Translations under genes and position numbers: made by a program | IMG/VR virus record: IMGVR_UViG_3300025030_000060 | Coordinates: 1-64,000 of that record | DNA length: 64,000 bases | Source: a virus | Strand: one strand, 5' to 3' | Part shown: in pieces, positions 8,852-42,740 of the stretch | Layout: every line of letters begins with the position of its first letter | How positions within the stretch are numbered: the stretch's first letter is position 1 | The notes under the pieces: generated by a model | The model's input: the letters and a program-made list of their open reading frames with translations, nothing else | The model's database searches: none | Told to the model about the DNA's origin: nothing

Positions 8852-9486
8852 ATCATCCCCTTATCCCGGCAGTAGTCGGCCCATGCTGCCATGACGCCGT
8901 TGGCAAGCTCCTTGTCCGTGGCGTCCTCGAACTCGGCCCGCCTGTACCCTTCCACCGCCACTATCTCTTCAAGGCACCACTCGCGCTGCTCCATGGTCAT
9001 CGGGGGAAGGGTGATCTCATAGGTGTAGTGCCGCAAGGCCATCTCTGCACCGTAGCAGACGGCCATGTGCTCGCACTGGTCTATCTCGCATACCCTTCGC
9101 TCAAAGTCGTCAAACGGGGTGCCTGGAGCTGATCCTTGGGGGACGGGTGCAACAGCTACTTGAGCGCCCCCGGAGCGGTGCGGTACGACCTGCCTGCCAA
9201 TGTCGGGCACCGGTTCCTTTGGCACTTCCAAGGTTCTCCGCATCTGCACCTTCAGCCGCTTGAGCCACTTCTTTTCGGACTTCGAGTGCTTCGGCTTCTT
9301 CCCCTCCGGCAAGGCGGGTTTCTCCTCATAGATCGGTCGTGAAAAGGCTTGGCTGGCCGGTACGATCTCCTTTCCCCCCATTACTACAAATCCTTTTGGC
9401 ACAAAGACTGCCGCCCCCTTTACTCTCTGCTCCGCTGCTTTCCGTGCCTGTGCTCCCACCTGTGCCAGTGACATCAATCTGGACAT
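8848..9486 (-). CDS. Hypothetical protein
   Basis: ATG after GGAGG RBS. Confidence 0.6.
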   Translation of the reverse strand: MSRLMSLAQVGAQARKAAEQRVKGAAVFVPKGFVVMGGKEIVPASQAFSRPIYEEKPALPEGKKPKHSKSEKKWLKRLKVQMRRTLEVPKEPVPDIGRQVVPHRSGGAQVAVAPVPQGSAPGTPFDDFERRVCEIDQCEHMAVCYGAEMALRHYTYEITLPPMTMEQREWCLEEIVAVEGYRRAEFEDATDKELANGVMAAWADYCRDKGMM

Positions 9487-9673
9487 TGCCCCTCCCCTTT
9501 TTTCGATAAATTGCTCCGACTTTTGACCAACCTGCCGACATGGGCCTTGTGCCGTGGTCAACTCCTTTTTGTTGAGCGGACGGCCATGCGGCTTATCGGG
9601 TTCCGGTGCCGGAGCAAACTGTTGATATGCCTTTTATTGTCCCGTGGCGTGAAGAAATAAGGTGCCGTAGGTT

Positions 9674-9949
9674 CTACCCTTCATCAGGCACCGCCTTCCC
9701 ACCGTTGCCGTCAATGCAGCGGTGCATTAGGGCTTCTACCTCTCGCGCCACATTGGCATCGTTGACATCGGCAGCAAGGTTATAGTGATCGTTCTCATGG
9801 ATAAGCCGCCATGTCTTTGCAGAGAACTTGTTGACAGGGTAGTGTTTAACCTCCCGGTAAAAGGCTTCCGTAATCGCTGCCAGTTTGGGGGATTCCGGGG
9901 TATTGTCGGCCTCGAACTTGACCCAGACAACGTGAACGATAGCTATCAT
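9674..9949 (-). CDS. Hypothetical protein
   Basis: ORF track. Confidence 0.6.
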   Translation of the reverse strand: MIAIVHVVWVKFEADNTPESPKLAAITEAFYREVKHYPVNKFSAKTWRLIHENDHYNLAADVNDANVAREVEALMHRCIDGNGGKAVPDEG

Positions 9950-10043
9950 AGCCGTCGCCCATGCTTGAACTTAACCCAATAAAGTCTGACATCAGCCCGT
10001 ATCTCCGGCTGCCCGATCAAGAGCCTCTTTCTCTGCCTTCTAG

Positions 10044-10463
10044 TCATAGCCATTGCCTCCCCAGCGCGAAGTAGTAGGCCGGGACCCCGGCTATCTCTTT
10101 GGGGAGCCCCATGGCGCGATTCGTTACCAGCAGGATCGCGGTGAGCTTCCCCGTCTTGCAGTACCGCTCAAGCTGCCGATAGATGTCGTGAGCCCCGCCG
10201 TCGAGCTTTACTTCGATGCCGATGCCGCGCTCATAAGTCTTGCGGCCTCCATCTGTACCGTCTTTCAACTGTCCCTTAAATGCCATGCGCCTTTCTCTGA
10301 TAAAGAAGTCGATCAGGCTCTCCCGCCCACCGTCAAGCGGATACTCCCGCTCGTGGGCGAGGTTGCTGTCCAGTAGAACCTGAGAAATGGCAGCCTGAGT
10401 CGCCTTCTCTGTCGTTACGTCGATTCTGTAGCGGCCCAGCGCCTGCACGACCTTGTTAATCAT
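10044..10463 (-). CDS. PD-(D/E)XK nuclease-fold protein
   Basis: E..Q...REY...IDF...GIEVK...QLERY motif. Confidence 0.7.
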   Translation of the reverse strand: MINKVVQALGRYRIDVTTEKATQAAISQVLLDSNLAHEREYPLDGGRESLIDFFIRERRMAFKGQLKDGTDGGRKTYERGIGIEVKLDGGAHDIYRQLERYCKTGKLTAILLVTNRAMGLPKEIAGVPAYYFALGRQWL

Positions 10464-10735
10464 GGGTACAACTCCTTGATGTAGCCGTTGATACGGCCCA
10501 CTACTTCCCCGGCATTGTTCATGTCCACGATGTCAAAGCCCTCGCTCTTGTAAATCGCGGATATCTTCACCAAGTCACCTTCCAGCGCCTTCATCTTCTT
10601 GCGCTTTTTGACCGACAGGTGAGTATCGCCCTTTTCGCTGCTCTTGACCGCATCTACACAGCAAAGCGCCACTGACAGGAAGAAAGCTTTTGCACCGTCG
10701 CTTAATGGCTCTTCAGTTTCCTCACTCAAATCCAT
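10460..10735 (-). CDS. Hypothetical protein
   Basis: AAGGAG RBS; TTGACA upstream near 10787. Confidence 0.65.
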   Translation of the reverse strand: MDLSEETEEPLSDGAKAFFLSVALCCVDAVKSSEKGDTHLSVKKRKKMKALEGDLVKISAIYKSEGFDIVDMNNAGEVVGRINGYIKELYP

Positions 10736-10775
10736 AACTCCTTGATAATGACCGTGGCTATACTTCTATCACGCC

Positions 10776-11147
10776 TCAATCTAATCTGTCAACTTGCTTT
10801 TCATCTCCGGCAATCCGGCCCGCCATCTCCAGGTCGTGAAGCGCCCGCTCGAAGACGGCGCGGGCCTCGTCGTAGGCCAGTGACACGTACTCGCAGGCGT
10901 CCGACATGGGCCGCTTGGTGTAGGCCATCCGTAGCCTCTTGGTCTGCAACTGAAAGGCCGTTATCATCTCGTTCAGGCTCCGCACGGACAAGTCGCGCCC
11001 TATCTTCGACTCGGCAACCCGCCTGACAAGAAGCTTCTGCGCGTTCCGGGCTCCGATCCTGCCGCAGCCCTCGCAAGGGTGAGTGATGTGAGAAGCGCAG
11101 CCGGGATGCCCGCAGGGTACACCGTCTTTGAATGGTTGCATGCACAT
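10776..11147 (-). CDS. Hypothetical protein with CxHPGCxSHxTHPCExCGR motif
   Basis: Conserved phage Cys/His N-terminal motif. Confidence 0.7.
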   Translation of the reverse strand: MCMQPFKDGVPCGHPGCASHITHPCEGCGRIGARNAQKLLVRRVAESKIGRDLSVRSLNEMITAFQLQTKRLRMAYTKRPMSDACEYVSLAYDEARAVFERALHDLEMAGRIAGDEKQVDRLD

Positions 11148-11149
11148 AG

Positions 11150-11737
11150 CTATCTCTCCTTGGTGCAGATGTCATGGTTCACGCCGCAGTTGCAGCCAGA
11201 GTTAGGCCATCGGCACTTCGGGCTGTGAATCCCTTGCGCTCTCTTGGCCTTACCCCATCCCGGCACGTTGGCCCCGCAGGTAAGCCCGTGTCCGGGGCAC
11301 TCGCGCTCGGCCTGCTTCGCGTCATGGTAAAGGCATTCGTTGTACCTATCAGAGCAAGGCGGCGTCGCTGGGGTCTTCTCTTCCACCTTGACGATCCGGT
11401 AGCCGCAGTTATGCAGGGCCGCGTGAAGGAGACCCATGCCGCAGTTGGAGCCCAGCCACTGAATGACCGTGGCGACGATGAAGCGGTCCCGCTTGGTGAT
11501 CCGGGCGCGGCACTTCCGATCATTCCTGATACTGAGACCCCCGGACGGCGGCTGAAGGAACAGGTCCTGAAGGATGCCGAAGCCGTAGTTCACGCCGCGC
11601 TGGTCTACGTTCTGCCGCTCCCACTCTTCGGCGAAGGCTATCTCCCGTGGGTTGTTGTGACTGGGGATGAGCCGGGAGGTATTAAGCCCCCGGTTCTGTT
11701 TGACGTTCCCCTCATACTTGAGCCGCTTCTTGTTCAC
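11150..11737 (-). CDS. Hypothetical phage protein
   Basis: ATVIQWLGSNCG motif seen in phage accessory proteins. Confidence 0.7.
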   Translation of the reverse strand: MNKKRLKYEGNVKQNRGLNTSRLIPSHNNPREIAFAEEWERQNVDQRGVNYGFGILQDLFLQPPSGGLSIRNDRKCRARITKRDRFIVATVIQWLGSNCGMGLLHAALHNCGYRIVKVEEKTPATPPCSDRYNECLYHDAKQAERECPGHGLTCGANVPGWGKAKRAQGIHSPKCRWPNSGCNCGVNHDICTKER

Positions 11738-11937
11738 TTCGCCTCCTTGAAGGCAGAGTCATCGCCCATGCTTACCCTTGAGCTGACCGCACTTATGGCA
11801 TCTGCCTGCCGTTTCCAGTAATCCAGTGCTGTAGTTGCCTTATCTAAATCAGCCACAGCTTGGGTATGTTTGGCGAAGACATACTCACGTTCTGTCTTAA
11901 TTGCTTCCTGAAATTCTTTATGCGTTGGTCTTGGCAT
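11734..11937 (-). CDS. Hypothetical protein
   Basis: MPRPTHKEF; coupled overlap. Confidence 0.55.
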   Translation of the reverse strand: MPRPTHKEFQEAIKTEREYVFAKHTQAVADLDKATTALDYWKRQADAISAVSSRVSMGDDSAFKEAK

Positions 11938-13246
11938 CAGCTTTGCCCTCCAGTACCGGCACCGTGGGTTCAATCTCGCGCAGCCACATGCCGCCCTCGT
12001 GGTTCGCGGCCCAGTCGGAGAACTGGAGGATATACGCCCGCTTCTCCCCGCCATAGCTCCGCATCACCACGTCCACCCTCATGGGGCGGTCTTCCGGGTC
12101 GCAGTTCCAGTACCACCAGCCCCCCGCCGCTTCAGGGGGCTCCTTGCGCCATGCGGGGGCAGGCTTGAGTTCCCACCTGTCAATCGTGGCCTGCACCCGC
12201 TGCACCGCTTCAGGGGAGAGGTTAAGCCCAATTTGCATAAGGCCGATGAGATGCTTAGGTGTGAGGGGGCTTTTAGTCTGGGTCAGGTCGGACGGGGCCT
12301 GTGCCTCGCGGGATTCCCACCACTTGTTGAAGCCTTCGGCTGTGTTGTTCCCCGGCTGGTTGTGCCACCAGTAGAAGAACTCCACGGCCACCTTCTCGAA
12401 GGCGGCCTTGTCCGGGGCCGCAGCTATCAGGGGATGGATGACGGCCATGACGGCGGCCACCATCTCGCTGATCCTTTCCGGGCCTTCTGCCACGAGGGTA
12501 AAGTCATCCTCGCTCATGGTGCCGATGCCCCACGCCTCCCATACGCGCCCGCAGTCGTAAGCCTCGCCAAGGGCCTCGCTGATCGCTTCTCCCAGTGCCG
12601 TCTTTATGGCCTCGCTGTCAATCTCGTTCTGGTTCGCCTCCAGCCAGAGACGGTTGTACTTTTCCAGGGGAGACTCGTAGGCAGAAGGGAGTGTCGCTTT
12701 GGGCTCGGCCTCGGCGCGAAGCGGGGAGCCTTGCAAGCCCTTCCGCTGAAGGTAGTCCATGTAGGCCGTTACCTTTTTGGCGTCCGGGCTCTTTCTGCAA
12801 AGCAGCTTCACCATCATGGCGAGGTCCCGCATGGTACGCTCTGCCTCGTGAAGAGATACCCGTGCCTGCTGGTCTGACGTATGGCAATCCCATCCCTGCT
12901 TGCATACGGGGCACCAATCGGTTTTGTTGGCGCTCGCCTCCGTGTACTTCGCCAGCTCCTGCTTCAGGGTGCCGTAGTTCTTCTGCCAGTCTGCCAGCCT
13001 ACCGGCATACTCCGCTTCCCGTGTCGGCAGTCCCTCCATGCGACGGCGCACCATGTCGATGACGACGGGGAACTCCGGCCAATCGGCCTCTACTACGAAA
13101 CAGTCAAGGTCTGCCTTGCCGTTCCGCCTGCGCCACATGTCAAGCCCTCGTGCAATGGTCGCAAGTTTGTCCTGCTCGTTCTCAGTCAAGGCTTCCGCCA
13201 TGTCGGAGCCCTTCATCACAAGGTAACGACGCTCACGCTTGAACAT
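11918..13246 (-). CDS. Mosaic hypothetical phage protein
   Basis: MFKRERRYLVMK...CFVVEADWPE N-terminal phage domain plus further modules. Confidence 0.75.
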   Translation of the reverse strand: MFKRERRYLVMKGSDMAEALTENEQDKLATIARGLDMWRRRNGKADLDCFVVEADWPEFPVVIDMVRRRMEGLPTREAEYAGRLADWQKNYGTLKQELAKYTEASANKTDWCPVCKQGWDCHTSDQQARVSLHEAERTMRDLAMMVKLLCRKSPDAKKVTAYMDYLQRKGLQGSPLRAEAEPKATLPSAYESPLEKYNRLWLEANQNEIDSEAIKTALGEAISEALGEAYDCGRVWEAWGIGTMSEDDFTLVAEGPERISEMVAAVMAVIHPLIAAAPDKAAFEKVAVEFFYWWHNQPGNNTAEGFNKWWESREAQAPSDLTQTKSPLTPKHLIGLMQIGLNLSPEAVQRVQATIDRWELKPAPAWRKEPPEAAGGWWYWNCDPEDRPMRVDVVMRSYGGEKRAYILQFSDWAANHEGGMWLREIEPTVPVLEGKADAKTNA

Positions 13247-17311: not shown

Positions 17312-18352
17312 TTAAAAACTTTCCGGGGCACCGTCGACTGACCCGACCGTAGGTGCGAAACTCTCGCTGCTCTTGAGGTCGTGCTTGATCTGGAGAACCT
17401 GCTGCTGCCGCTCGGGGAGGAACTGCTCCATCTGTTTGTCGCGGCTCGCCAGGGCTTCACGGTACAGCCGATCCAGGTCGGCAGGGGTGACGGGTGTAAC
17501 GATAGGTCCGTCGCCCTCCTCTTCCTCCCGCTTGGAGAGCTGGATCTTGATGATCTCCGGCAGAGGTAGGCCCAGGCGCGTAAAGCGGTACCCTGCCTCC
17601 AACAGCGTCAGCTTGCCGTCTTCCAGTTCCTGAATGATTTGTGCTGTCTCCGCACGGGGGGAGAAGTTGTCAGAGAACATCTTCTGGAGCTTGGCGAGGT
17701 CCATCAGCACGGCGCGGCGGGATACCAGCTTCAGTTTCACCTTCCGGCCCTTGCGCCTTTTGTTCTTGCCATCCTCGCCCACCTCGCCGCTGGCATCGTC
17801 TTCGTCCTCCAAGAACTCTTTGACTTCATACTCTTCTACCGCCCGGAGCTTGTCGTCGTCGGCCATAGAAAGGTCCGTCGTTGCTGTGCCGTCATCCTCG
17901 ATCTGGAGGAAGTGCCCGATGTGAACGTGGGCCATCTTTGCCAGTTCCTGTATGATGAACTCGGGGTCCGCCTTGTACTTCGTGATGATAGAGTTGGCGA
18001 CTATCCTGATTGCCTTGCGAACCTTGGGGGTTTTCAGGAGGTCATGGGCGCTCGAACCGGCAGCGGAATAGGTGAGGTGACGGCCATAAGCCTCTAGGTA
18101 CGACTGCACCGCGTTACGGGTCTTCACGTACTCCATTACGAACTTGGTCTGCTGGATGTTGAGTCCGTCAAGAGTGTCCTCAAACTCTTGGCCCCAGTCA
18201 TCATCAAGGTTTTGCGCGGCTCCCTTTACTGGCTCTTTTGCTGTCGCGGGGGTCTTGCTCCCCCCTTGGGCCTTCGACTTAGCGGCGGGTTTTTTCTTGG
18301 CGGCAGCAGCCTTGCTCTTTGCCTCTTTTCCCGGTTTCTCGCCCTTAGCCAT
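17312..18352 (-). CDS. terS: Terminase small subunit (PacA-like C-terminus)
   Basis: LNIQQTKFVMEY...NAVQSYLEAY...LLKTPKV HTH; IIQELAKMA. Confidence 0.85.
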   Translation of the reverse strand: MAKGEKPGKEAKSKAAAAKKKPAAKSKAQGGSKTPATAKEPVKGAAQNLDDDWGQEFEDTLDGLNIQQTKFVMEYVKTRNAVQSYLEAYGRHLTYSAAGSSAHDLLKTPKVRKAIRIVANSIITKYKADPEFIIQELAKMAHVHIGHFLQIEDDGTATTDLSMADDDKLRAVEEYEVKEFLEDEDDASGEVGEDGKNKRRKGRKVKLKLVSRRAVLMDLAKLQKMFSDNFSPRAETAQIIQELEDGKLTLLEAGYRFTRLGLPLPEIIKIQLSKREEEEGDGPIVTPVTPADLDRLYREALASRDKQMEQFLPERQQQVLQIKHDLKSSESFAPTVGSVDGAPESF

Positions 18353-18842
18353 TTTGCACCATGATGTCAGTCAACCACCGGTCGAGAAGAGACCGCCTCG
18401 TCATCCATCTGCCACGTCTTGCGCCCTCGGGTATCACTTGGGTGATGGGGCACCCCGGAAGGGCGAGGTAGGGGGCCATGTAGTCCCAATGGGAGAGCTT
18501 CATGACGTAAAGGATCTGGTCCCTGCCGACAATGAGGTCGTCTCTTAACGCGGTGTCGTCCTCATGCACAGGGCCGCAGGGAATGGTTGCCCTTGGGTGC
18601 TCGGGGTTGGCCTGCCCCGGTCTTACGGTTCTCGCCCACTCGATCAATGCACTTCTCCTCGCTACCCAACGAGGGGCCAGCCTCGGCCCGCGCTTCTTCG
18701 TCTCGCCGGGAGATGAGTACACAGGGCACCCCGGCAGAGAGAGGTAGGGCTTCATGTCTTCCCATTTAGTGAACCCCATGACCCCCATAATCTGCTCCTG
18801 TCCGGTTATGATGTCTTCTCTTATTGCAGTGTCACAGTCCAA
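18345..18842 (-). CDS. Protein with a tandem-duplicated winged-helix-like domain
   Basis: Two copies of TAxRxDxIxGxxQI...WxxMxPYLxLPGCP...RWxxRRSxLxxW. Confidence 0.75.
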   Translation of the reverse strand: MDCDTAIREDIITGQEQIMGVMGFTKWEDMKPYLSLPGCPVYSSPGETKKRGPRLAPRWVARRSALIEWARTVRPGQANPEHPRATIPCGPVHEDDTALRDDLIVGRDQILYVMKLSHWDYMAPYLALPGCPITQVIPEGARRGRWMTRRSLLDRWLTDIMVQNG

Positions 18843-18988
18843 TGTTAAGCCCCCCGTGTTTTCTAATTGCGTTTTCGAGTCAAAAATGCAATAAAGTCAG
18901 CACACGGGGTGCATCGGGTACTCAGTAGTGTGTGGTGAGAATACAAAGGCTTGACGGCTGCCACCGTCTGGCCTTTTCTCGTTTCGGC

Positions 18989-19201
18989 CTATCCGGGCTT
19001 TGCCCCGCATACGCACTTGCCTTGCTGCCAGATGATCGAAAGCGCACACTGCGCCGAATGCCGCTCATCCCATATCAACCGGTCGAACTCTGACAGCCGC
19101 TGATGAACCGCTTGGTCTTGCGGTGAGCATGGCAGTTCGAGTGTGCGGCCTATCTCAGCCTGGAGTTGCTGTTGACGGTCGATACCCTGCGCTTGCACCA
19201 C
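18989..19201 (-). CDS. Hypothetical protein
   Basis: ORF track. Confidence 0.5.
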   Translation of the reverse strand: MVQAQGIDRQQQLQAEIGRTLELPCSPQDQAVHQRLSEFDRLIWDERHSAQCALSIIWQQGKCVCGAKPG

Positions 19202-19500
19202 TATTCGCCCCCTTGCACAATGTGCAGGTCGCTTACCCTCGGCCAGTAGAGTAGGGGGTTTGCTTTGTCAGTCTTCCCGGACTTGACTGCCACGATGTAG
19301 CTCTCTCGGGGGCGGTACAGCAGGCCCGTGGTGAGCTTTGCCGTGTTGAACCCTTCCAGTTCCAGCCCCTTGCTCCTGAACAGGTCCCGCTTATTCCCTT
19401 GGTAGCAGGGCGGAACCACGATGACGATCTCCCCTTGCTTCTCCTTCGGAAAGCTCCCCCCTGACTGGCTACTCCATTTCACGTTGCTGCCAACATTCAT
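19201..19500 (-). CDS. Conserved hypothetical phage protein
   Basis: VKWSSQSGG...ESYIV...LYWPRVS motif. Confidence 0.75.
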   Translation of the reverse strand: MNVGSNVKWSSQSGGSFPKEKQGEIVIVVPPCYQGNKRDLFRSKGLELEGFNTAKLTTGLLYRPRESYIVAVKSGKTDKANPLLYWPRVSDLHIVQGGE

Positions 19501-19542
19501 AAACTCTCCTAATCCGTTGATAATGTCCGATATTACACCGAA

Positions 19543-19752
19543 TTACCGCACGTTCCCTATAAGGGCCGCCCTCACCCTCTGTTCCCGGAGGTAGTCGGCC
19601 ACGGCTTCCATGTCCCTGACCTCGATCCGGGTCTGTGCCCTTGCCTTATCCCAGCGGTCCAGGCAGAACGGAAGCGAGGATGCTACGCATATCATGACGA
19701 TGACAACCCCAACGGCCACCAGGGACCATGCCCTTATTGTTTCCCAGTTCAC
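19543..19752 (-). CDS. Hypothetical membrane-anchored protein
   Basis: N-terminal TM helix. Confidence 0.6.
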   Translation of the reverse strand: MNWETIRAWSLVAVGVVIVMICVASSLPFCLDRWDKARAQTRIEVRDMEAVADYLREQRVRAALIGNVR

Positions 19753-37238: not shown

Positions 37239-37270
37239 AAAAGCGCCCCTTCTTGAGAAAGGACGCTTTT
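37239..37270. terminator. Intrinsic (bidirectional) terminator
   Basis: AAAAGCG...CGCTTTT hairpin. Confidence 0.7.
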
Positions 37271-37394: not shown

Positions 37395-37424
37395 TATATA
37401 CACCTAAAGTGACATAACTGTCAA
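37395..37424 (-). promoter_or_regulatory. Candidate sigma70 promoter pointing away from the att site
   Basis: TTGACA-18-TATATA; TGACA-N4-TGTCA palindrome over -35. Confidence 0.45.
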
Positions 37425-37446
37425 GTGCGGCAGCATTTGCGTTTTC

Positions 37447-37540
37447 ATTATCCCAACCAAACAGCTACAATCACTGAGCAATCCCGTTGATCGCCCTCGC
37501 GTGTTATGCCGCCGGTTGGCGAGATAATAACTAGTTAAAC
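37447..37540 (+). other. attI-like integron recombination site
   Basis: Core GTTAAAC (37534-40) preceded by AGATAAT and a 5-nt spacer; inverted repeat ATTATC-CCAACC / GGTTGG-CGA-GATAAT; core is complementary to the R'' of the first attC. Confidence 0.6.
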
Positions 37541-37546
37541 CGACCT

Positions 37547-37732
37547 TTATTCGTCTACCTTCGTCGGCTTCAGGGTTTCAGCTATATCCCGGAACCGCTG
37601 TAGTTCGCGCTGTACCGCCACCTTCGCCCTGTGCCCTAATTGGTTGCGTGGGTCGCTCAAGAGGTACGCAAGCTCGTTTGCCTCGTCCTTGAGCAAGACT
37701 ACTGCCTGATCAATTGCTTCCTTTCTGGTCAT
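37547..37732 (-). CDS. Cassette 1, distal gene (hypothetical)
   Basis: ATGA coupling at the conserved junction. Confidence 0.7.
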   Translation of the reverse strand: MTRKEAIDQAVVLLKDEANELAYLLSDPRNQLGHRAKVAVQRELQRFRDIAETLKPTKVDE

Positions 37733-37980
37733 GGCCGCACCGCCTCTGCCGCCTTATAGCCGTCGTTTCGACCCTGCCAGTAGTCGCTGTTTTCGTATTC
37801 TGCGACGAGCAACCGCAGTTCCTCATTTTCAGCCGTCAGCCGCTCCACCTCGTGGCTAAGATATGCAGTCCCGCCAGAGGGAGCATCCAGGTACGACCGC
37901 AGCCGCTCCACCTCGGTAATGATCGCCATGACTGTTGGAAAATCTCTGAATATAATCTTCTGTCTTTGCAAGTCCATCAT
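37729..37980 (-). CDS. Cassette 1, proximal gene (EVERL coiled-coil)
   Basis: GGAGG RBS next to the attC core; ends AEAVRP. Confidence 0.7.
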   Translation of the reverse strand: MMDLQRQKIIFRDFPTVMAIITEVERLRSYLDAPSGGTAYLSHEVERLTAENEELRLLVAEYENSDYWQGRNDGYKAAEAVRP

Positions 37981-37990
37981 CCCTCCCAGG

Positions 37991-38041
37991 GTTTAACCCC
38001 TCGCTCGTCCGCTGGCGCGGCCAGCTCGCAAACCGTTATCC
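37991..38041 (+). repeat. attC-like site 1 (51 bp)
   Basis: GTTTAAC-CCCTC-GCTCGTCC...GGCCAGC-TCGCAAACC-GTTATCC. Confidence 0.75.
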
Positions 38042-38557
38042 CTCGAACTCCGGGTTAAAATTCGGACAGGAAAAATCGCCGTGGGTCTGAACCGATCCTT
38101 TGCCACTACCAAACGTGATGTTTAGCCGGAACATTGGCACGGTGTCTTTCCCAAACTCACCGAAAAGGTCGATCATGCAAGTCCGATACTCGCCTGTCAG
38201 CTCTTTAACGTAGTGCATCCCCTGTGAACCCCAGGCTTTGCACTGCCGGCACTTGCCGGTTGCCTCTTCGAGGCCCTCACCGTTGAGGCAACGGGGGATC
38301 TCCGCGCCGATGGTATCCGGTACCCGCCCGCCGCCCTGATCCTCCTGGAAGCACATCACCCTCTCAACCAGCAGTTCGATACTCTTGATATGCTCCGGGT
38401 TAGCACCCAACTCAATGCATTTGTACTTATACGTTTGAAGGGCGGCAGGGACAGCAGCGTCCTTTGCGCAGAGCAGGAGCGAGTCGACCTCTGTGTACTT
38501 CTTGCCGTTCACCGGGTTAAAGGCATGAATCTGGAATTTGCGGTCAATTACGCTCAT
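38036..38557 (-). CDS. Cassette 2 gene (phage-type hypothetical)
   Basis: LLCAKDAAVPAAL..Y motif; TAA stop lies within the GTTA core. Confidence 0.8.
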   Translation of the reverse strand: MSVIDRKFQIHAFNPVNGKKYTEVDSLLLCAKDAAVPAALQTYKYKCIELGANPEHIKSIELLVERVMCFQEDQGGGRVPDTIGAEIPRCLNGEGLEEATGKCRQCKAWGSQGMHYVKELTGEYRTCMIDLFGEFGKDTVPMFRLNITFGSGKGSVQTHGDFSCPNFNPEFEG

Positions 38558-38583
38558 GAATTTTCTCCGTTTTATAGTGCCAG

Positions 38584-38632
38584 GGATAACCCGGCGCTGG
38601 TCCGCTGCGCGGGCAGCTTGGTTGCGTTAAAC
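38584..38632 (+). repeat. attC-like site 2 (49 bp)
   Basis: GGATAAC-CCGGC-GCTGGTCC...GGGCAGC-TTGGTTGC-GTTAAAC. Confidence 0.8.
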
Positions 38633-38899
38633 CAGAATGATTTCTCTTGCGTTAATGGAACAGTTATCGGATATCGGAGAAGTCCCATACCAGCGCAGGT
38701 ACCACTTACCGTTGACGCCCTTGGCTTTCCACATCTTCCCCTCGTAAACTCCCGATGGTATAGACGACGAATACTCGGCCAGAAAATTAAATGTCTTTTC
38801 GGACATCAGCGCGTGAGTGCCGTCAATCTCGATTGCAGACCGATGCGGTTGATTCCAGTACGCGCCCAGAGGGTCTGTCATTGCAGGTATCTCGCTCAT
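38627..38899 (-). CDS. Cassette 3, distal gene (conserved phage hypothetical)
   Basis: MTDPLGAYWNQP...YSSSIPSGVYEGKMWK; stop in core site. Confidence 0.8.
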   Translation of the reverse strand: MSEIPAMTDPLGAYWNQPHRSAIEIDGTHALMSEKTFNFLAEYSSSIPSGVYEGKMWKAKGVNGKWYLRWYGTSPISDNCSINAREIILV

Positions 38900-39177
38900 A
38901 GCCGCACCGCCTCTGCTTTAGCCATGTCCAGAAGTTCAATGAGCTTTTCGTCAGAGACATCGGCCTTTGCTGCCAAAACTGCAACTACGGCGTGCAGCGC
39001 ATCCCTCTGGACAGTGACCCGCTCCACCTCACCAGAGAGTGAGTTGACCATAGACCGTAACTCCCCGATCTCGCCTTTGAGATCATCACACGCGCCGTGA
39101 GGGCATACCTTCGGAAGCGCTGCCTCAGCCGTTGACCTACCTCTACCTTGATACATGTACCCTTTAGCGTCACCCAT
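38896..39177 (-). CDS. Cassette 3, proximal gene
   Basis: Ends AEAVRL at the conserved junction. Confidence 0.7.
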   Translation of the reverse strand: MGDAKGYMYQGRGRSTAEAALPKVCPHGACDDLKGEIGELRSMVNSLSGEVERVTVQRDALHAVVAVLAAKADVSDEKLIELLDMAKAEAVRL

Positions 39178-39194
39178 CTCTTCATCCCTCCAAA

Positions 39195-39282
39195 GTTTAA
39201 CCAGCAGGTCGAGGCGACCGAGCCGGTGGTAGTGAGCAGGAGTTGGCGAGAGTTCCCGCGCCTCACCTGCGGTCCGTTAAAC
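39195..39282 (+). repeat. attC-like site 3 (88 bp)
   Basis: GTTTAAC-CAGCA-GGT(C)GAGGCG(A)C...GCGCCTCACC-TGCGGTCC-GTTAAAC, with two extrahelical bases at the canonical positions. Confidence 0.9.
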
Positions 39283-39438
39283 CGGCTCCTGGAACCTTGC
39301 TTTTTTTGCAGTCTCTTTGACTACTTCAACGTCCCAAGAGGCACCATCTTCCCCAATTTTACGGATTGCATCCTCTTTCGATTCAGCCTCTATGCAGGCG
39401 GTCTCTTTTATCGTCCTGGTGACTTGATACCAGTTCAT
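39277..39438 (-). CDS. Cassette 4, distal gene (53 aa)
   Basis: MNWYQVTRTIKETACIEAESKEDA; stop in core site. Confidence 0.7.
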   Translation of the reverse strand: MNWYQVTRTIKETACIEAESKEDAIRKIGEDGASWDVEVVKETAKKARFQEPV

Positions 39439-39791
39439 AGCCGCACCGCCTCTGCCTTGCGAGCGTTTTGCATGGTGCTCGCGAAGCAACTGGCTGTCGC
39501 AGCCGTGTTTTCGTAGTGGGTTTGCATGGAGCGCAATGCCCTAGCCAGGGTGCCGTCTTCCGATGTCGAGTGCCACGGCGTTTTCTTGCCGTAGCCGGAG
39601 ATTTTCACTTCGTACTTGGCTTTGCCGTCCTTCTCCCTCCTCTCCACCTGGAGGGTCGAAAGCCTGTTGAATCCACTGCTCTGTATCCCGGTGGCGCGTA
39701 GGTACCCTTCGGGGTTGGACGACTTGTGCACCGTCCAATCGTAGCCGGGCATGATCTTGACCAGTTCTTTTCTGAAATCTGCTGGACTCAT
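39435..39791 (-). CDS. Cassette 4, proximal gene (conserved phage hypothetical)
   Basis: FRKELVKIMPGY.WTVH...ATGIQSSGFNRLSTL; ends AEAVRL. Confidence 0.8.
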   Translation of the reverse strand: MSPADFRKELVKIMPGYDWTVHKSSNPEGYLRATGIQSSGFNRLSTLQVERREKDGKAKYEVKISGYGKKTPWHSTSEDGTLARALRSMQTHYENTAATASCFASTMQNARKAEAVRL

Positions 39792-39806
39792 TGTTTACCT
39801 CCCAGG

Positions 39807-39854
39807 GTTTAACCAATCGCCGCAGCCATCCGGCTGGGCTCAAAAGCGTTAGGC
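39807..39854 (+). repeat. attC-like site 4 (48 bp)
   Basis: GTTTAAC-CAATC-GCC(G)CAGCC-ATCC-GGCTGGGC-TCAAAAGC-GTTAGGC. Confidence 0.85.
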
Positions 39855-40031
39855 CTTTATGTCCTTCACTGTCCCGATAATCTTAATTTTTGAGTGCTCG
39901 CCCCAGCGTGACGTAGCAGTTCCGGTTTCCAACATTTGAGTTCTGATACGAAACGCCTCCCATCGTCTACCAAGACTGAATACGATAAGCAGCACGCCAA
40001 TTACCGCTAAAACAAGTATTGTTGTAATCAA
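39849..40031 (-). CDS. Cassette 5 gene, membrane-anchored (low GC)
   Basis: N-terminal TM; stop in core site. Confidence 0.65.
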   Translation of the reverse strand: MITTILVLAVIGVLLIVFSLGRRWEAFRIRTQMLETGTATSRWGEHSKIKIIGTVKDIKA

Positions 40032-40059: not shown

Positions 40060-40126
40060 CAATAACCAGTGCTCGGACGCCGACCGGCAAACAACGTCGG
40101 ACGGGTCAAGCACATGGCCGTTAACC
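40060..40126 (+). repeat. attC-like site 5 (67 bp, degenerate)
   Basis: CAATAAC-CA-GTGCT..GAC.CCG...CGGGTCAAGCAC-ATGGCC-GTTAACC. Confidence 0.7.
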
Positions 40127-40366
40127 CGATTTTGCCGCCCTCTTCAGCGTCTTCGCCACCTTCGAGGTGATCGCTTCGCGCATGAATTCGGTTTCACCCT
40201 CTCCGGTGATCTCTCGCGCCTTGCTAATTCCCTCATACTCGCCGCAGGTAAAGCGTATCCCTTTGCTGACCTTCAGCGGGTTCTCTTTCCTGTAGTCCTT
40301 CTTTCGGCCCGCTCCCGGTTTTGCACCTCCAAGAGGTTTCCCGTTGGCATTAAATCCTTTTGGCAT
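40121..40366 (-). CDS. Ribbon-helix-helix-like DNA-binding protein
   Basis: GGAKPGAGRK followed by KGIRFT..E...EFMREAI; stop in the GTTA core. Confidence 0.7.
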   Translation of the reverse strand: MPKGFNANGKPLGGAKPGAGRKKDYRKENPLKVSKGIRFTCGEYEGISKAREITGEGETEFMREAITSKVAKTLKRAAKSG

Positions 40367-40555
40367 CGCTGTCTCTCCTATGTATTGGGCTCATGGCCTT
40401 CGAAGATATCTGTCAACATTAAGCATTCCCAGCTCCGCATGTCGCGCAAGAAAAACCCGCGCTGCCGTGAGCCTGCGCCCACTCGCCGACATGAATAACC
40501 CTTTTGCACTGATTGCACGTCTTAGGGTCGGTGATCTTAACCACCACGACACGGC

Positions 40556-42700: not shown

Positions 42701-42740
42701 AATATACACTCTTTGGATTATGTGTCAAACAAATAATGCA
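42701..42740 (-). promoter_or_regulatory. Sigma70 promoter with operator (copy 2)
   Basis: TGCATTATTTGTTTGACACATAA; TTGACA-16-TATATT. Confidence 0.8.

Follow-up and report, generated by a model that had tools for sequence, protein, structure and literature searches.

The first 64 kb of the 96.5-kb viral record IMGVR_UViG_3300025030_000060, here called the window (the completeness of the record is estimated at 84%), contain an array of small genes separated by short sites with the layout of integron attC sites. We consider it probable, at about 80%, that these are genuine attC sites of a phage-borne integron lineage, reduced to a minimal form, and that the window holds an integrase-less array with a remnant of attI. 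Nine small genes (53–173 amino acids, aa) on the minus strand make up the array, running from 40366 down to 37547 as units of one or two genes, with five intergenic sites (A to E) separating the cassette units. On the coding strand, each site opens with a 7-base box ending in TAAC, where TAA is the stop codon of the preceding gene, and closes with a 7-base box starting with GTTA, directly 5′ of the next ribosome-binding site. The box heptamers are clustered, with six of the seven found in the 64-kb window falling in 37534–39813. An earlier note on this DNA had described five attC-like sites in 37991–39854, three of them ultra-short; four lie there, and the fifth, site E, is located outside, at 40063–40126. 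The sites are listed below with their scores from the covariance model R1, which is described in the next section.

37991–38041, minus strand: site A, putative minimal attC, 51 nt (R1 59.1 bits)
38584–38632, minus strand: site B, putative minimal attC, 49 nt (R1 52.4 bits)
39195–39282, minus strand: site C, putative long-form attC, 88 nt, built on the foot of the short sites and extended by a larger terminal structure (weak R1 match)
39807–39854, minus strand: site D, putative minimal attC, 48 nt (R1 49.3 bits)
40063–40126, minus strand: site E, atypical or decayed attC-like site, 64 nt, with TAAC/GTTA boxes and a hairpin, between the 81-aa and 60-aa genes

Site architecture and covariation

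A scan of the window with the strict canonical R″/R′ consensus caught only sites C and D together with one chance match, and for this reason relaxed boxes and a covariance model were used. Relatives were gathered by pattern searches with two conserved junction sequences, which returned viral contigs and two contigs of a Geobacter metagenome-assembled genome (MAG), and all contigs so gathered carry arrays of the same site class. The earlier note had named a lack of similar sites around variable genes in other genomes as the outcome that would speak against its idea of a distinct phage-adapted attC class, and the arrays in about a dozen related viral contigs contradict it. Model R1, built from an alignment of 17 short sites, matched 36 sites, 31 of which are distinct and some of which lie outside its training set. 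The note had proposed as a check a covariance model of its five sites, to be run on phage and virome databases; the model built here from 17 sites gave a set of 31 distinct sites with one covarying fold.

The TAAC and GTTA boxes are in register in all window sites and in 30–31 of the 31 distinct sites. The fold contains a 6-bp helix that is 95–96% paired (96% in the 17-site alignment), and in five of its six pairs both partners have changed. Its covariation score is 0.37–0.39 compared with 0.11–0.13 in shuffles, where none of 500 scored as high, and when the helix partners are slid against one another, pairing drops to 27–44% of cells (17-site alignment). All 31 sites have a single bulged base on the coding-strand 3′ arm, exactly 3 bp above the helix foot, which is G in 23 and C in 8. 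Also on the coding strand, the spacer before the 3′ box measures 5 nt in 31 of 31 sites, and the spacer after the 5′ box is 8 nt (n = 16), 9 nt (n = 9), 7 nt (n = 4) or 5 nt (n = 2). Lengths are 44–54 nt in 25 of the distinct sites and 87–90 nt in the remaining six; this long form, which includes site C, has the same foot with a larger terminal structure and is detected weakly by R1. Since attC sites have a published size of 57–141 bp (56–141 bp in mobile integrons; PMC5371416), the short class lies below the described range; the paper on IntegronFinder 2.0 was consulted for the size limits of that program, and none were found in it. The putative bottom strand of the phage sites, which is the coding strand, is G-rich with a mean skew of +0.18, and the attC bottom strand is likewise G-rich (PMC5371416). 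Together, the clustering of the heptamers and the covariation of the fold over 31 distinct sites indicate that these sites are more than chance.

Within the window, sites A to D read on the plus strand as a box, a 5-nt spacer, a short helix, 8–9 nt and a second box. The short sites have a loop of 3–4 nt on a helix of 6–9 bp, with hardly any terminal structure, as the earlier note had remarked. Its lengths of 51, 49 and 48 bp are those measured for sites A, B and D, its statement that they fall under an attC lower limit of about 57 bp agrees with the published range, and its choice of the plus strand as the attC top strand is borne out by the canonical bottom-strand layout on the coding strand. 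The 5-nt and 8–9-nt spacers that it had assigned to all five sites hold for A, B, C and D and do not hold for E. Site D, for instance, has an 8-bp helix with a bulged C 3 bp above the foot, and its coding-strand spacers are 8 nt on the 5′ side and 5 nt on the 3′ side. Site A agrees at 47 of 51 positions with a site in the phage contig L051, lying about 1 kb upstream of intI there, and likewise with one in contig L011. Site C has both its end boxes and its bulged helix paired in the centroid fold, and homologous long sites in contigs L002, L007, L010 and L013 carry compensatory changes in the foot helix. In essence, the minimal attC proposed here would be reduced to its two end boxes, a wide spacer that stays unpaired, a single short helix carrying an extrahelical base, and a loop of 3–4 nt, where the coding strand would be the attC bottom strand and would presumably fold as single-stranded DNA.

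Cassette ends and exchange of cassettes

An integron cassette carries its own box split between both of its ends, with the start box complementing the end box and not the other box of the same site. Ten curated arrays were compared on this point: perfect complementarity of the variable triplets was seen between opposite cassette ends in 24 of 28 cases, and between the two boxes of one site in 7 of 28. Permutation of the curated triplets gave a mean of 8.7, with none of 100,000 permutations reaching 24, and 10 of 14 cassette ends match when the commonest triplet type is left out. An uncurated test on consecutive R1 matches gave 13/18 compared with 10/36, again with no permutation in 100,000 as high, and two of the five failures have an undetected junction between the sites. 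The rule holds for four of the five cassettes in the window and fails at site E only; the 3′ box triplet of site B, for example, complements the 5′ box of site A, on the far side of the 173-aa gene, and not the 5′ box of site B itself. At the level of sequence, this complementarity between cassette ends is the signature of integron cassette recombination. The cassette units of the window are as follows.

40121–40366, minus strand: cassette gene, 81 aa, no family match
39849–40031, minus strand: cassette gene, 60 aa, hydrophobic N-terminus
39277–39791, minus strand: two-gene cassette, 118 aa and 53 aa, stop/start overlap
38627–39177, minus strand: two-gene cassette, 93 aa and 90 aa, stop/start overlap
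38036–38557, minus strand: one-gene cassette, 173 aa
37547–37980, minus strand: two-gene cassette, 83 aa and 61 aa, adjoining the terminal junction

The far (5′) boundary of the array, near 40400, is without a recognisable site. Searches of Pfam and PHROGs assigned a function to none of the nine cassette genes in the window, the 90-aa protein matching phrog_24427 (function unknown), and Rfam and transfer RNA (tRNA) scans of the window gave no matches.

The contents of the array differ even from those of a close relative. Through the portal region and as far as the terminator at 37266, contig L002 matches the window at about 94% identity, and upstream of this point its genes, set between sites of the same class, are wholly different. 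Among the cassette proteins of the window, only two have homologues in other arrays, at 60–62% identity: the 118-aa protein is 62% identical to the cassette protein that adjoins the terminal junction of contig L006, and the 173-aa protein has a homologue in contig L005 (60%) that is flanked by the same box-triplet pair and by different hairpins. When a site in L007 is compared with one in L013, identity begins at the TAAC of the 5′ box and extends over the hairpin into the downstream gene for 150 nt (99%), with unrelated sequence upstream. The point of exchange is thereby located at the 5′ box, and the hairpin goes with the gene that follows it. Movement of the hairpin with the downstream gene is expected if the coding strand is the bottom strand. 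A cassette would then begin with the hairpin and the 3′ box, continue with a ribosome-binding site and its one or two genes, and end in a 5′ box, in which TAA usually serves as the stop codon. The crossover would fall inside the 5′ box, where this single informative breakpoint only places the exchange at or upstream of TAAC; in canonical attC, IntI cleaves the AAC triplet between its second A and its C.

A further conserved sequence lies inside the cassettes. Near-identical junctions of 21–24 nt, at 37729–37752, 38896–38919 and 39435–39458, join both genes of three two-gene cassettes, where they give the first gene a common six-residue C-terminal motif and an overlapping stop/start. This junction, which was used as a search pattern, is present again in at least 10 viral contigs, and may either serve as a second point of exchange or couple the translation of the two genes. 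The cassette cargo of the relatives includes NADAR-domain, DUF3850/ASCH and weakly radical-SAM/DUF5131-like proteins, encoded at L013:4483–5337 (minus strand), L012:3154–3834 (minus strand) and L007:12305–13072 (plus strand), and such NADAR, ASCH-type and radical-SAM-like cargo may have anti-defence or nucleic-acid-modifying functions. In addition, one cassette of L002 contains a stretch of about 135 nt (L002:1187–1322) that ends in a tRNA-like T-arm, acceptor and CCA and is recognised by neither ARAGORN nor Rfam.

Several observations weigh against an interpretation of these sites as attC. As single-stranded DNA, the short sites fold at about −8 kcal/mol (z −0.4 to −1.1) and their end boxes are unpaired in the minimum-energy fold, in which the L-type helix is predicted and the R box remains unpaired. 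Junctions without a hairpin occur at L005:7145–7165, L003:9611–9636, L006:905–924 and L050:5561–5582; these keep both boxes or the 3′ box alone, and the triplets in L005 still obey the cassette-end rule. Site E is unmatched by R1, deviates in its spacer geometry and has a box triplet that mismatches the next cassette end. For L010 and L012, and for site A and L011, the hairpins are 97–100% identical while both flanks are unrelated, the identity stopping inside the 3′ box. One-sided bottom-strand exchange alone would not predict such hairpins, which leaves two options: occasional use of both strands, or a contribution from homologous exchange within the conserved hairpin and ribosome-binding context. 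Finally, neither an IntI nor any other tyrosine recombinase, serine recombinase or HUH transposase was found in the 96.5-kb record at its 84% completeness.

The weak single-stranded folding and the identical hairpins between unrelated flanks would suit a different explanation, in which the hairpins are mainly RNA-level or regulatory elements of an operon and the modules are swapped by homologous recombination at conserved linkers, a mechanism proposed for the linkers of lambdoid phages and for T4-type promoter stem-loops. The location of the hairpins, which on the sense strand separate a stop codon from the ribosome-binding site that follows, the running of the 3′ box into a conserved ribosome-binding context, and the second conserved 21-nt junction within two-gene cassettes are also in keeping with it. 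We nevertheless regard this explanation as improbable. Homologous recombination at linkers would not create complementarity between box triplets that lie 300–900 bp apart at the ends of a cassette. No wobble-type single changes occur in the 186 helix cells of the 31 sites, which is unusual for a selected RNA helix, and DNA-level pairing therefore fits better. No T-run was found after the hairpins and no promoter before them, the element at 37239–37270 being the only strong terminator. The exact attC geometry, together with the IntI and attI-like junction adjacent to the arrays of relatives, would also be left unexplained.

Terminal junction, integrase and polarity

If the sites are attC, new cassettes would enter at a conserved attI-like junction that lies at the 3′ end of the phage operon. 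The features concerned are as follows.

37447–37541, minus strand: terminal attI-like junction, consisting of the last 5′ box (37534–37541) and a conserved imperfect hairpin
37239–37270, minus strand: intrinsic terminator that closes the operon before the portal gene and where homology to L002 resumes, from a consensus scan only
42701–42728, minus strand: promoter-like site with 11/12 consensus positions that could drive the operon ending in the array, from a consensus scan only

The window junction is shared with L002, L006, L010 and L011 (alignment A3), and it is homologous in integrase-bearing and integrase-less contigs. In five contigs (L050, L051, L053, L054 and L055) the intI start codon lies 20–30 nt past the junction, and IntI adjoins arrays of the same site class. 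In L013/L050, the gene for a 388-aa IntI begins about 25 nt after the junction; the protein scores 362 bits against TIGR02249 (cut-off 265) and aligns end to end with Vibrio cholerae IntIA (VchIntIA, PDB 2a3v), with the IntI-specific insertion included. Related integrases, 52–75% identical, occupy the corresponding position in L051, L053, L054 and L055. R1 matches are found upstream of intI, on the same strand, in L050, L051, L053 and L054; L055 has no R1 match, and its pattern-matched sites of 51–63 nt have box triplets that follow the cassette rule. The integrases of the first four contigs are 60–75% identical to one another, that of L055 is 46–54% identical to those four, and the phage IntI appears to form a clade of its own, in contigs with terminase and portal genes. 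In L051 and L053, terminase and portal genes lie just downstream of intI, which identifies these contigs as phages, and their integron occupies the same genomic position as the window array, just before the packaging and head genes. The distinct phage-adapted attC class suggested by the earlier note thus gains from a covarying attC-type fold, from the cassette-end rule, and from the junction and the separate IntI clade of the relatives. The second outcome that the note had named as refuting, sites without integrase activity, likewise runs counter to this sequence evidence, from which we infer that IntI would recombine the phage sites.

Another recombinase could in principle use the same sites, such as the Xer-like tyrosine recombinases of the relatives or the host Xer, with the adjacency of IntI being a separate matter. 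Xer-like recombinases of 386 and 435 aa are encoded in the records of L005 and L006, 10–13 kb from the arrays, but these genes are not next to the arrays, are missing from most array-holding records and score well below the IntI cut-off. A true IntI, on the other hand, is placed exactly at the conserved junction in five contigs, and the geometry of the sites matches IntI substrates, making the involvement of another recombinase very unlikely. An element of the IS200/IS605 type or a miniature inverted-repeat transposable element was considered separately and rejected: elements of the IS200/IS605 type encode an HUH Y1 transposase and have subterminal hairpins at both ends without terminal inverted repeats, whereas the record encodes no Y1 transposase and each unit carries a single hairpin and ends in inverted repeats.

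With no integrase in the record, the window array is best described as an integrase-less derivative, whose cassettes would be moved in trans by the IntI of co-resident related phages or of the Geobacteraceae host. It might alternatively be a frozen relic, in which true attC sites from an integron-bearing ancestor are no longer recombined in this lineage. Such a relic would agree with the missing integrase, with the decayed appearance of site E, and with the integrase-less junction being kept with its own downstream sequence in several contigs, which suggests a stable lineage. However, the closest relative, L002, with flanks 94% identical, shares none of the junction-nearest cassettes, the window array has near-identical hairpins in common with intI-bearing phages of the same sample series, and four of the five window cassette ends still match perfectly. 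We therefore give little credence to a relic.

The integrase-less contigs (the window, L002, L006 and L010) have a common sequence after the junction that differs from that of the intI-bearing ones. In the place of intI they carry a stretch of about 100 nt, found at 37400–37480 on the minus strand of the window and also in L002, L006 and L010, which could be a small RNA or regulatory region. In the window it is followed by a promoter-like sequence noted by eye (not listed by the consensus scan) and by the terminator at 37239–37270. Among the intI-bearing phages, L054 encodes a transposase-like protein (phrog_310; L054:320–2119) 6 kb upstream of its array, and may on this account be of a transposable type.

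The polarity of the array is unusual in one respect. In the intI-bearing relatives, intI points away from the array on the strand with the attC bottom-strand layout, with intI, attI and attC in their canonical arrangement. What is reversed is the direction of the cassette genes: all of them in the window and nearly all in the relatives are on this bottom-strand side and run towards the junction and intI. Transcription of the cassettes from a distal phage promoter would account for all genes being antisense to the canonical attC polarity, with intI, where present, as the last co-directional gene after the junction, and the array would behave as the 3′ end of a phage operon. The phage that carries it has a head module that is distant kin of phage P1, with a portal 34% identical to P1 Prt, and encodes a DarB-like protein of 2122 aa. 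It is likely a Geobacter-type phage, with Geobacteraceae as the host family.

Comparison with known integrons and phage linkers

The Geobacteraceae chromosomal integrons L048 and L049 served as the host comparison. Their attC sites are 62–63 nt long and fold at about −22 kcal/mol (z near −5.7), with the R and L boxes both paired. On the strand opposite the cassette genes, they consist of a box, a 6-nt spacer, 3 bp, more helix with a bulged G 3 bp above the foot, a 5-nt spacer and a box. The phage sites have in common with canonical and Geobacteraceae integrons the AAC/GTT end boxes, an unpaired spacer and a variable terminal structure, a bottom-strand extrahelical base that is 3 bp above the foot and separated from the box by 5 nt, chimeric sites with complementarity between cassette ends, and a G-rich bottom strand; the phage relatives with intI also share its location beside an attI-type junction, pointing away from the array. 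In contrast, the phage sites are smaller (44–54 nt, compared with 57–141 published and 62–63 nt in the host), their spacers are 5 by 7–9 nt in place of the canonical and host 5 by 6, and the short sites have no stem beyond the L-type helix and a far weaker folding energy than host attC. The genes also differ in their placement: those of the phage cassettes are on the bottom-strand side and head for attI and intI, and those of the host cassettes are on the other strand. The phage IntI is 39–46% identical to the chromosomal IntI of the host family.

An IntI above the cut-off is present in 39 of 87 Geobacteraceae genomes. A search of this family with R1, in which few candidates were scored per genome, matched the two phage-like array contigs of the Geobacter MAG and single loci in 2 of 86 other genomes. 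A host integron as the origin of the site class was considered and rejected, as the IntI locus of that MAG shows no such sites nearby. At locus L030 (G006:C120) of this MAG, a chromosomal IntI at 10458–11495 (345 bits) has no recognisable attC array within 8 kb, and 18000–19600 of the same locus holds a long run of 117-nt protein-coding repeats. In the Geobacteraceae genome G024, locus L095 (G024:C8:139000–158000) carries five sites of the phage class, 51–116 nt long, on the reverse strand at about 9194–12750, followed by a 50–75-residue remnant of a phage-type IntI. On balance, the evidence leans towards a separate phage-adapted integron lineage, in Geobacteraceae phages and perhaps wider, with its own IntI clade, a conserved attI, attC pared down to an R box, a spacer, an L helix and a triloop (as little as 44 nt), and obligatorily antisense cassettes.

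In terms of existing categories, a cluster of attC sites lacking an integron integrase (CALIN) is defined as two or more same-strand attC sites that lie within 4 kb and have no IntI nearby (PMC4889954). The window has four model-supported sites, called with R1, within 1.9 kb on one strand, and no IntI in the record. It lacks the features of a complete integron, as there is no intI in the record and the genes are not on the attC top strand leading away from attI; an intI with the IntI-specific insertion beside the junction and array is present in the relatives. The window sites are thus classed as an attC variant, and the array as an integrase-less cluster and not a complete integron, outside the classical size and orientation.

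Integron components are known from phages, including integrase-less attC clusters, and IntI1 was able to recombine several attC sites of phages (Qi et al., 2023, PMC9892861). The window array resembles the phage CALINs of that study in being a cluster of attC sites in a phage genome without a neighbouring IntI. Those cases were found with standard tools, however, and the two best have the usual gene direction, and a phage IntI clade, a conserved attI-like junction, sites below 57 nt, a wider spacer and uniformly antisense genes are not described there (Qi et al., 2023, PMC9892861). A full-text literature search on integrons and attC in Geobacter phages returned no description of this phage integron family.

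Integrons are viewed as bacterial devices, with cassettes read from a promoter beside attI. If the interpretation given here is true, phages possess integrons in their own right, in which the genes face the opposite way to suit a phage operon, and use them to shuffle accessory genes, beyond merely carrying bacterial cassettes. IntI would then work with sites as small as 44 nt that have a wider unpaired spacer and lack a stem beyond the L box, which would set a new lower bound for an IntI substrate, and the minimal structural requirements of attC become directly testable. Arrays of this kind may be undercounted when a survey is designed around canonical sites and the canonical gene orientation, and standard covariance models might miss the sites, as the earlier note had suggested.

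The promoter early stem-loop (PeSL) mobile cassettes of T4-type phages and the linker sequences of lambdoid phages are proposed to act by homologous recombination and carry promoters. Like the window array, they have conserved intergenic stem-loops that border variable small phage genes. The window array differs from both in having no promoter, in its complementary inverted-repeat borders across cassettes and, in the relatives, in a linked integron integrase. The new features of the phage integron family are sites of 44–54 bases, a wider spacer, and cassette genes that are all antisense to the attC polarity and co-directional with intI.

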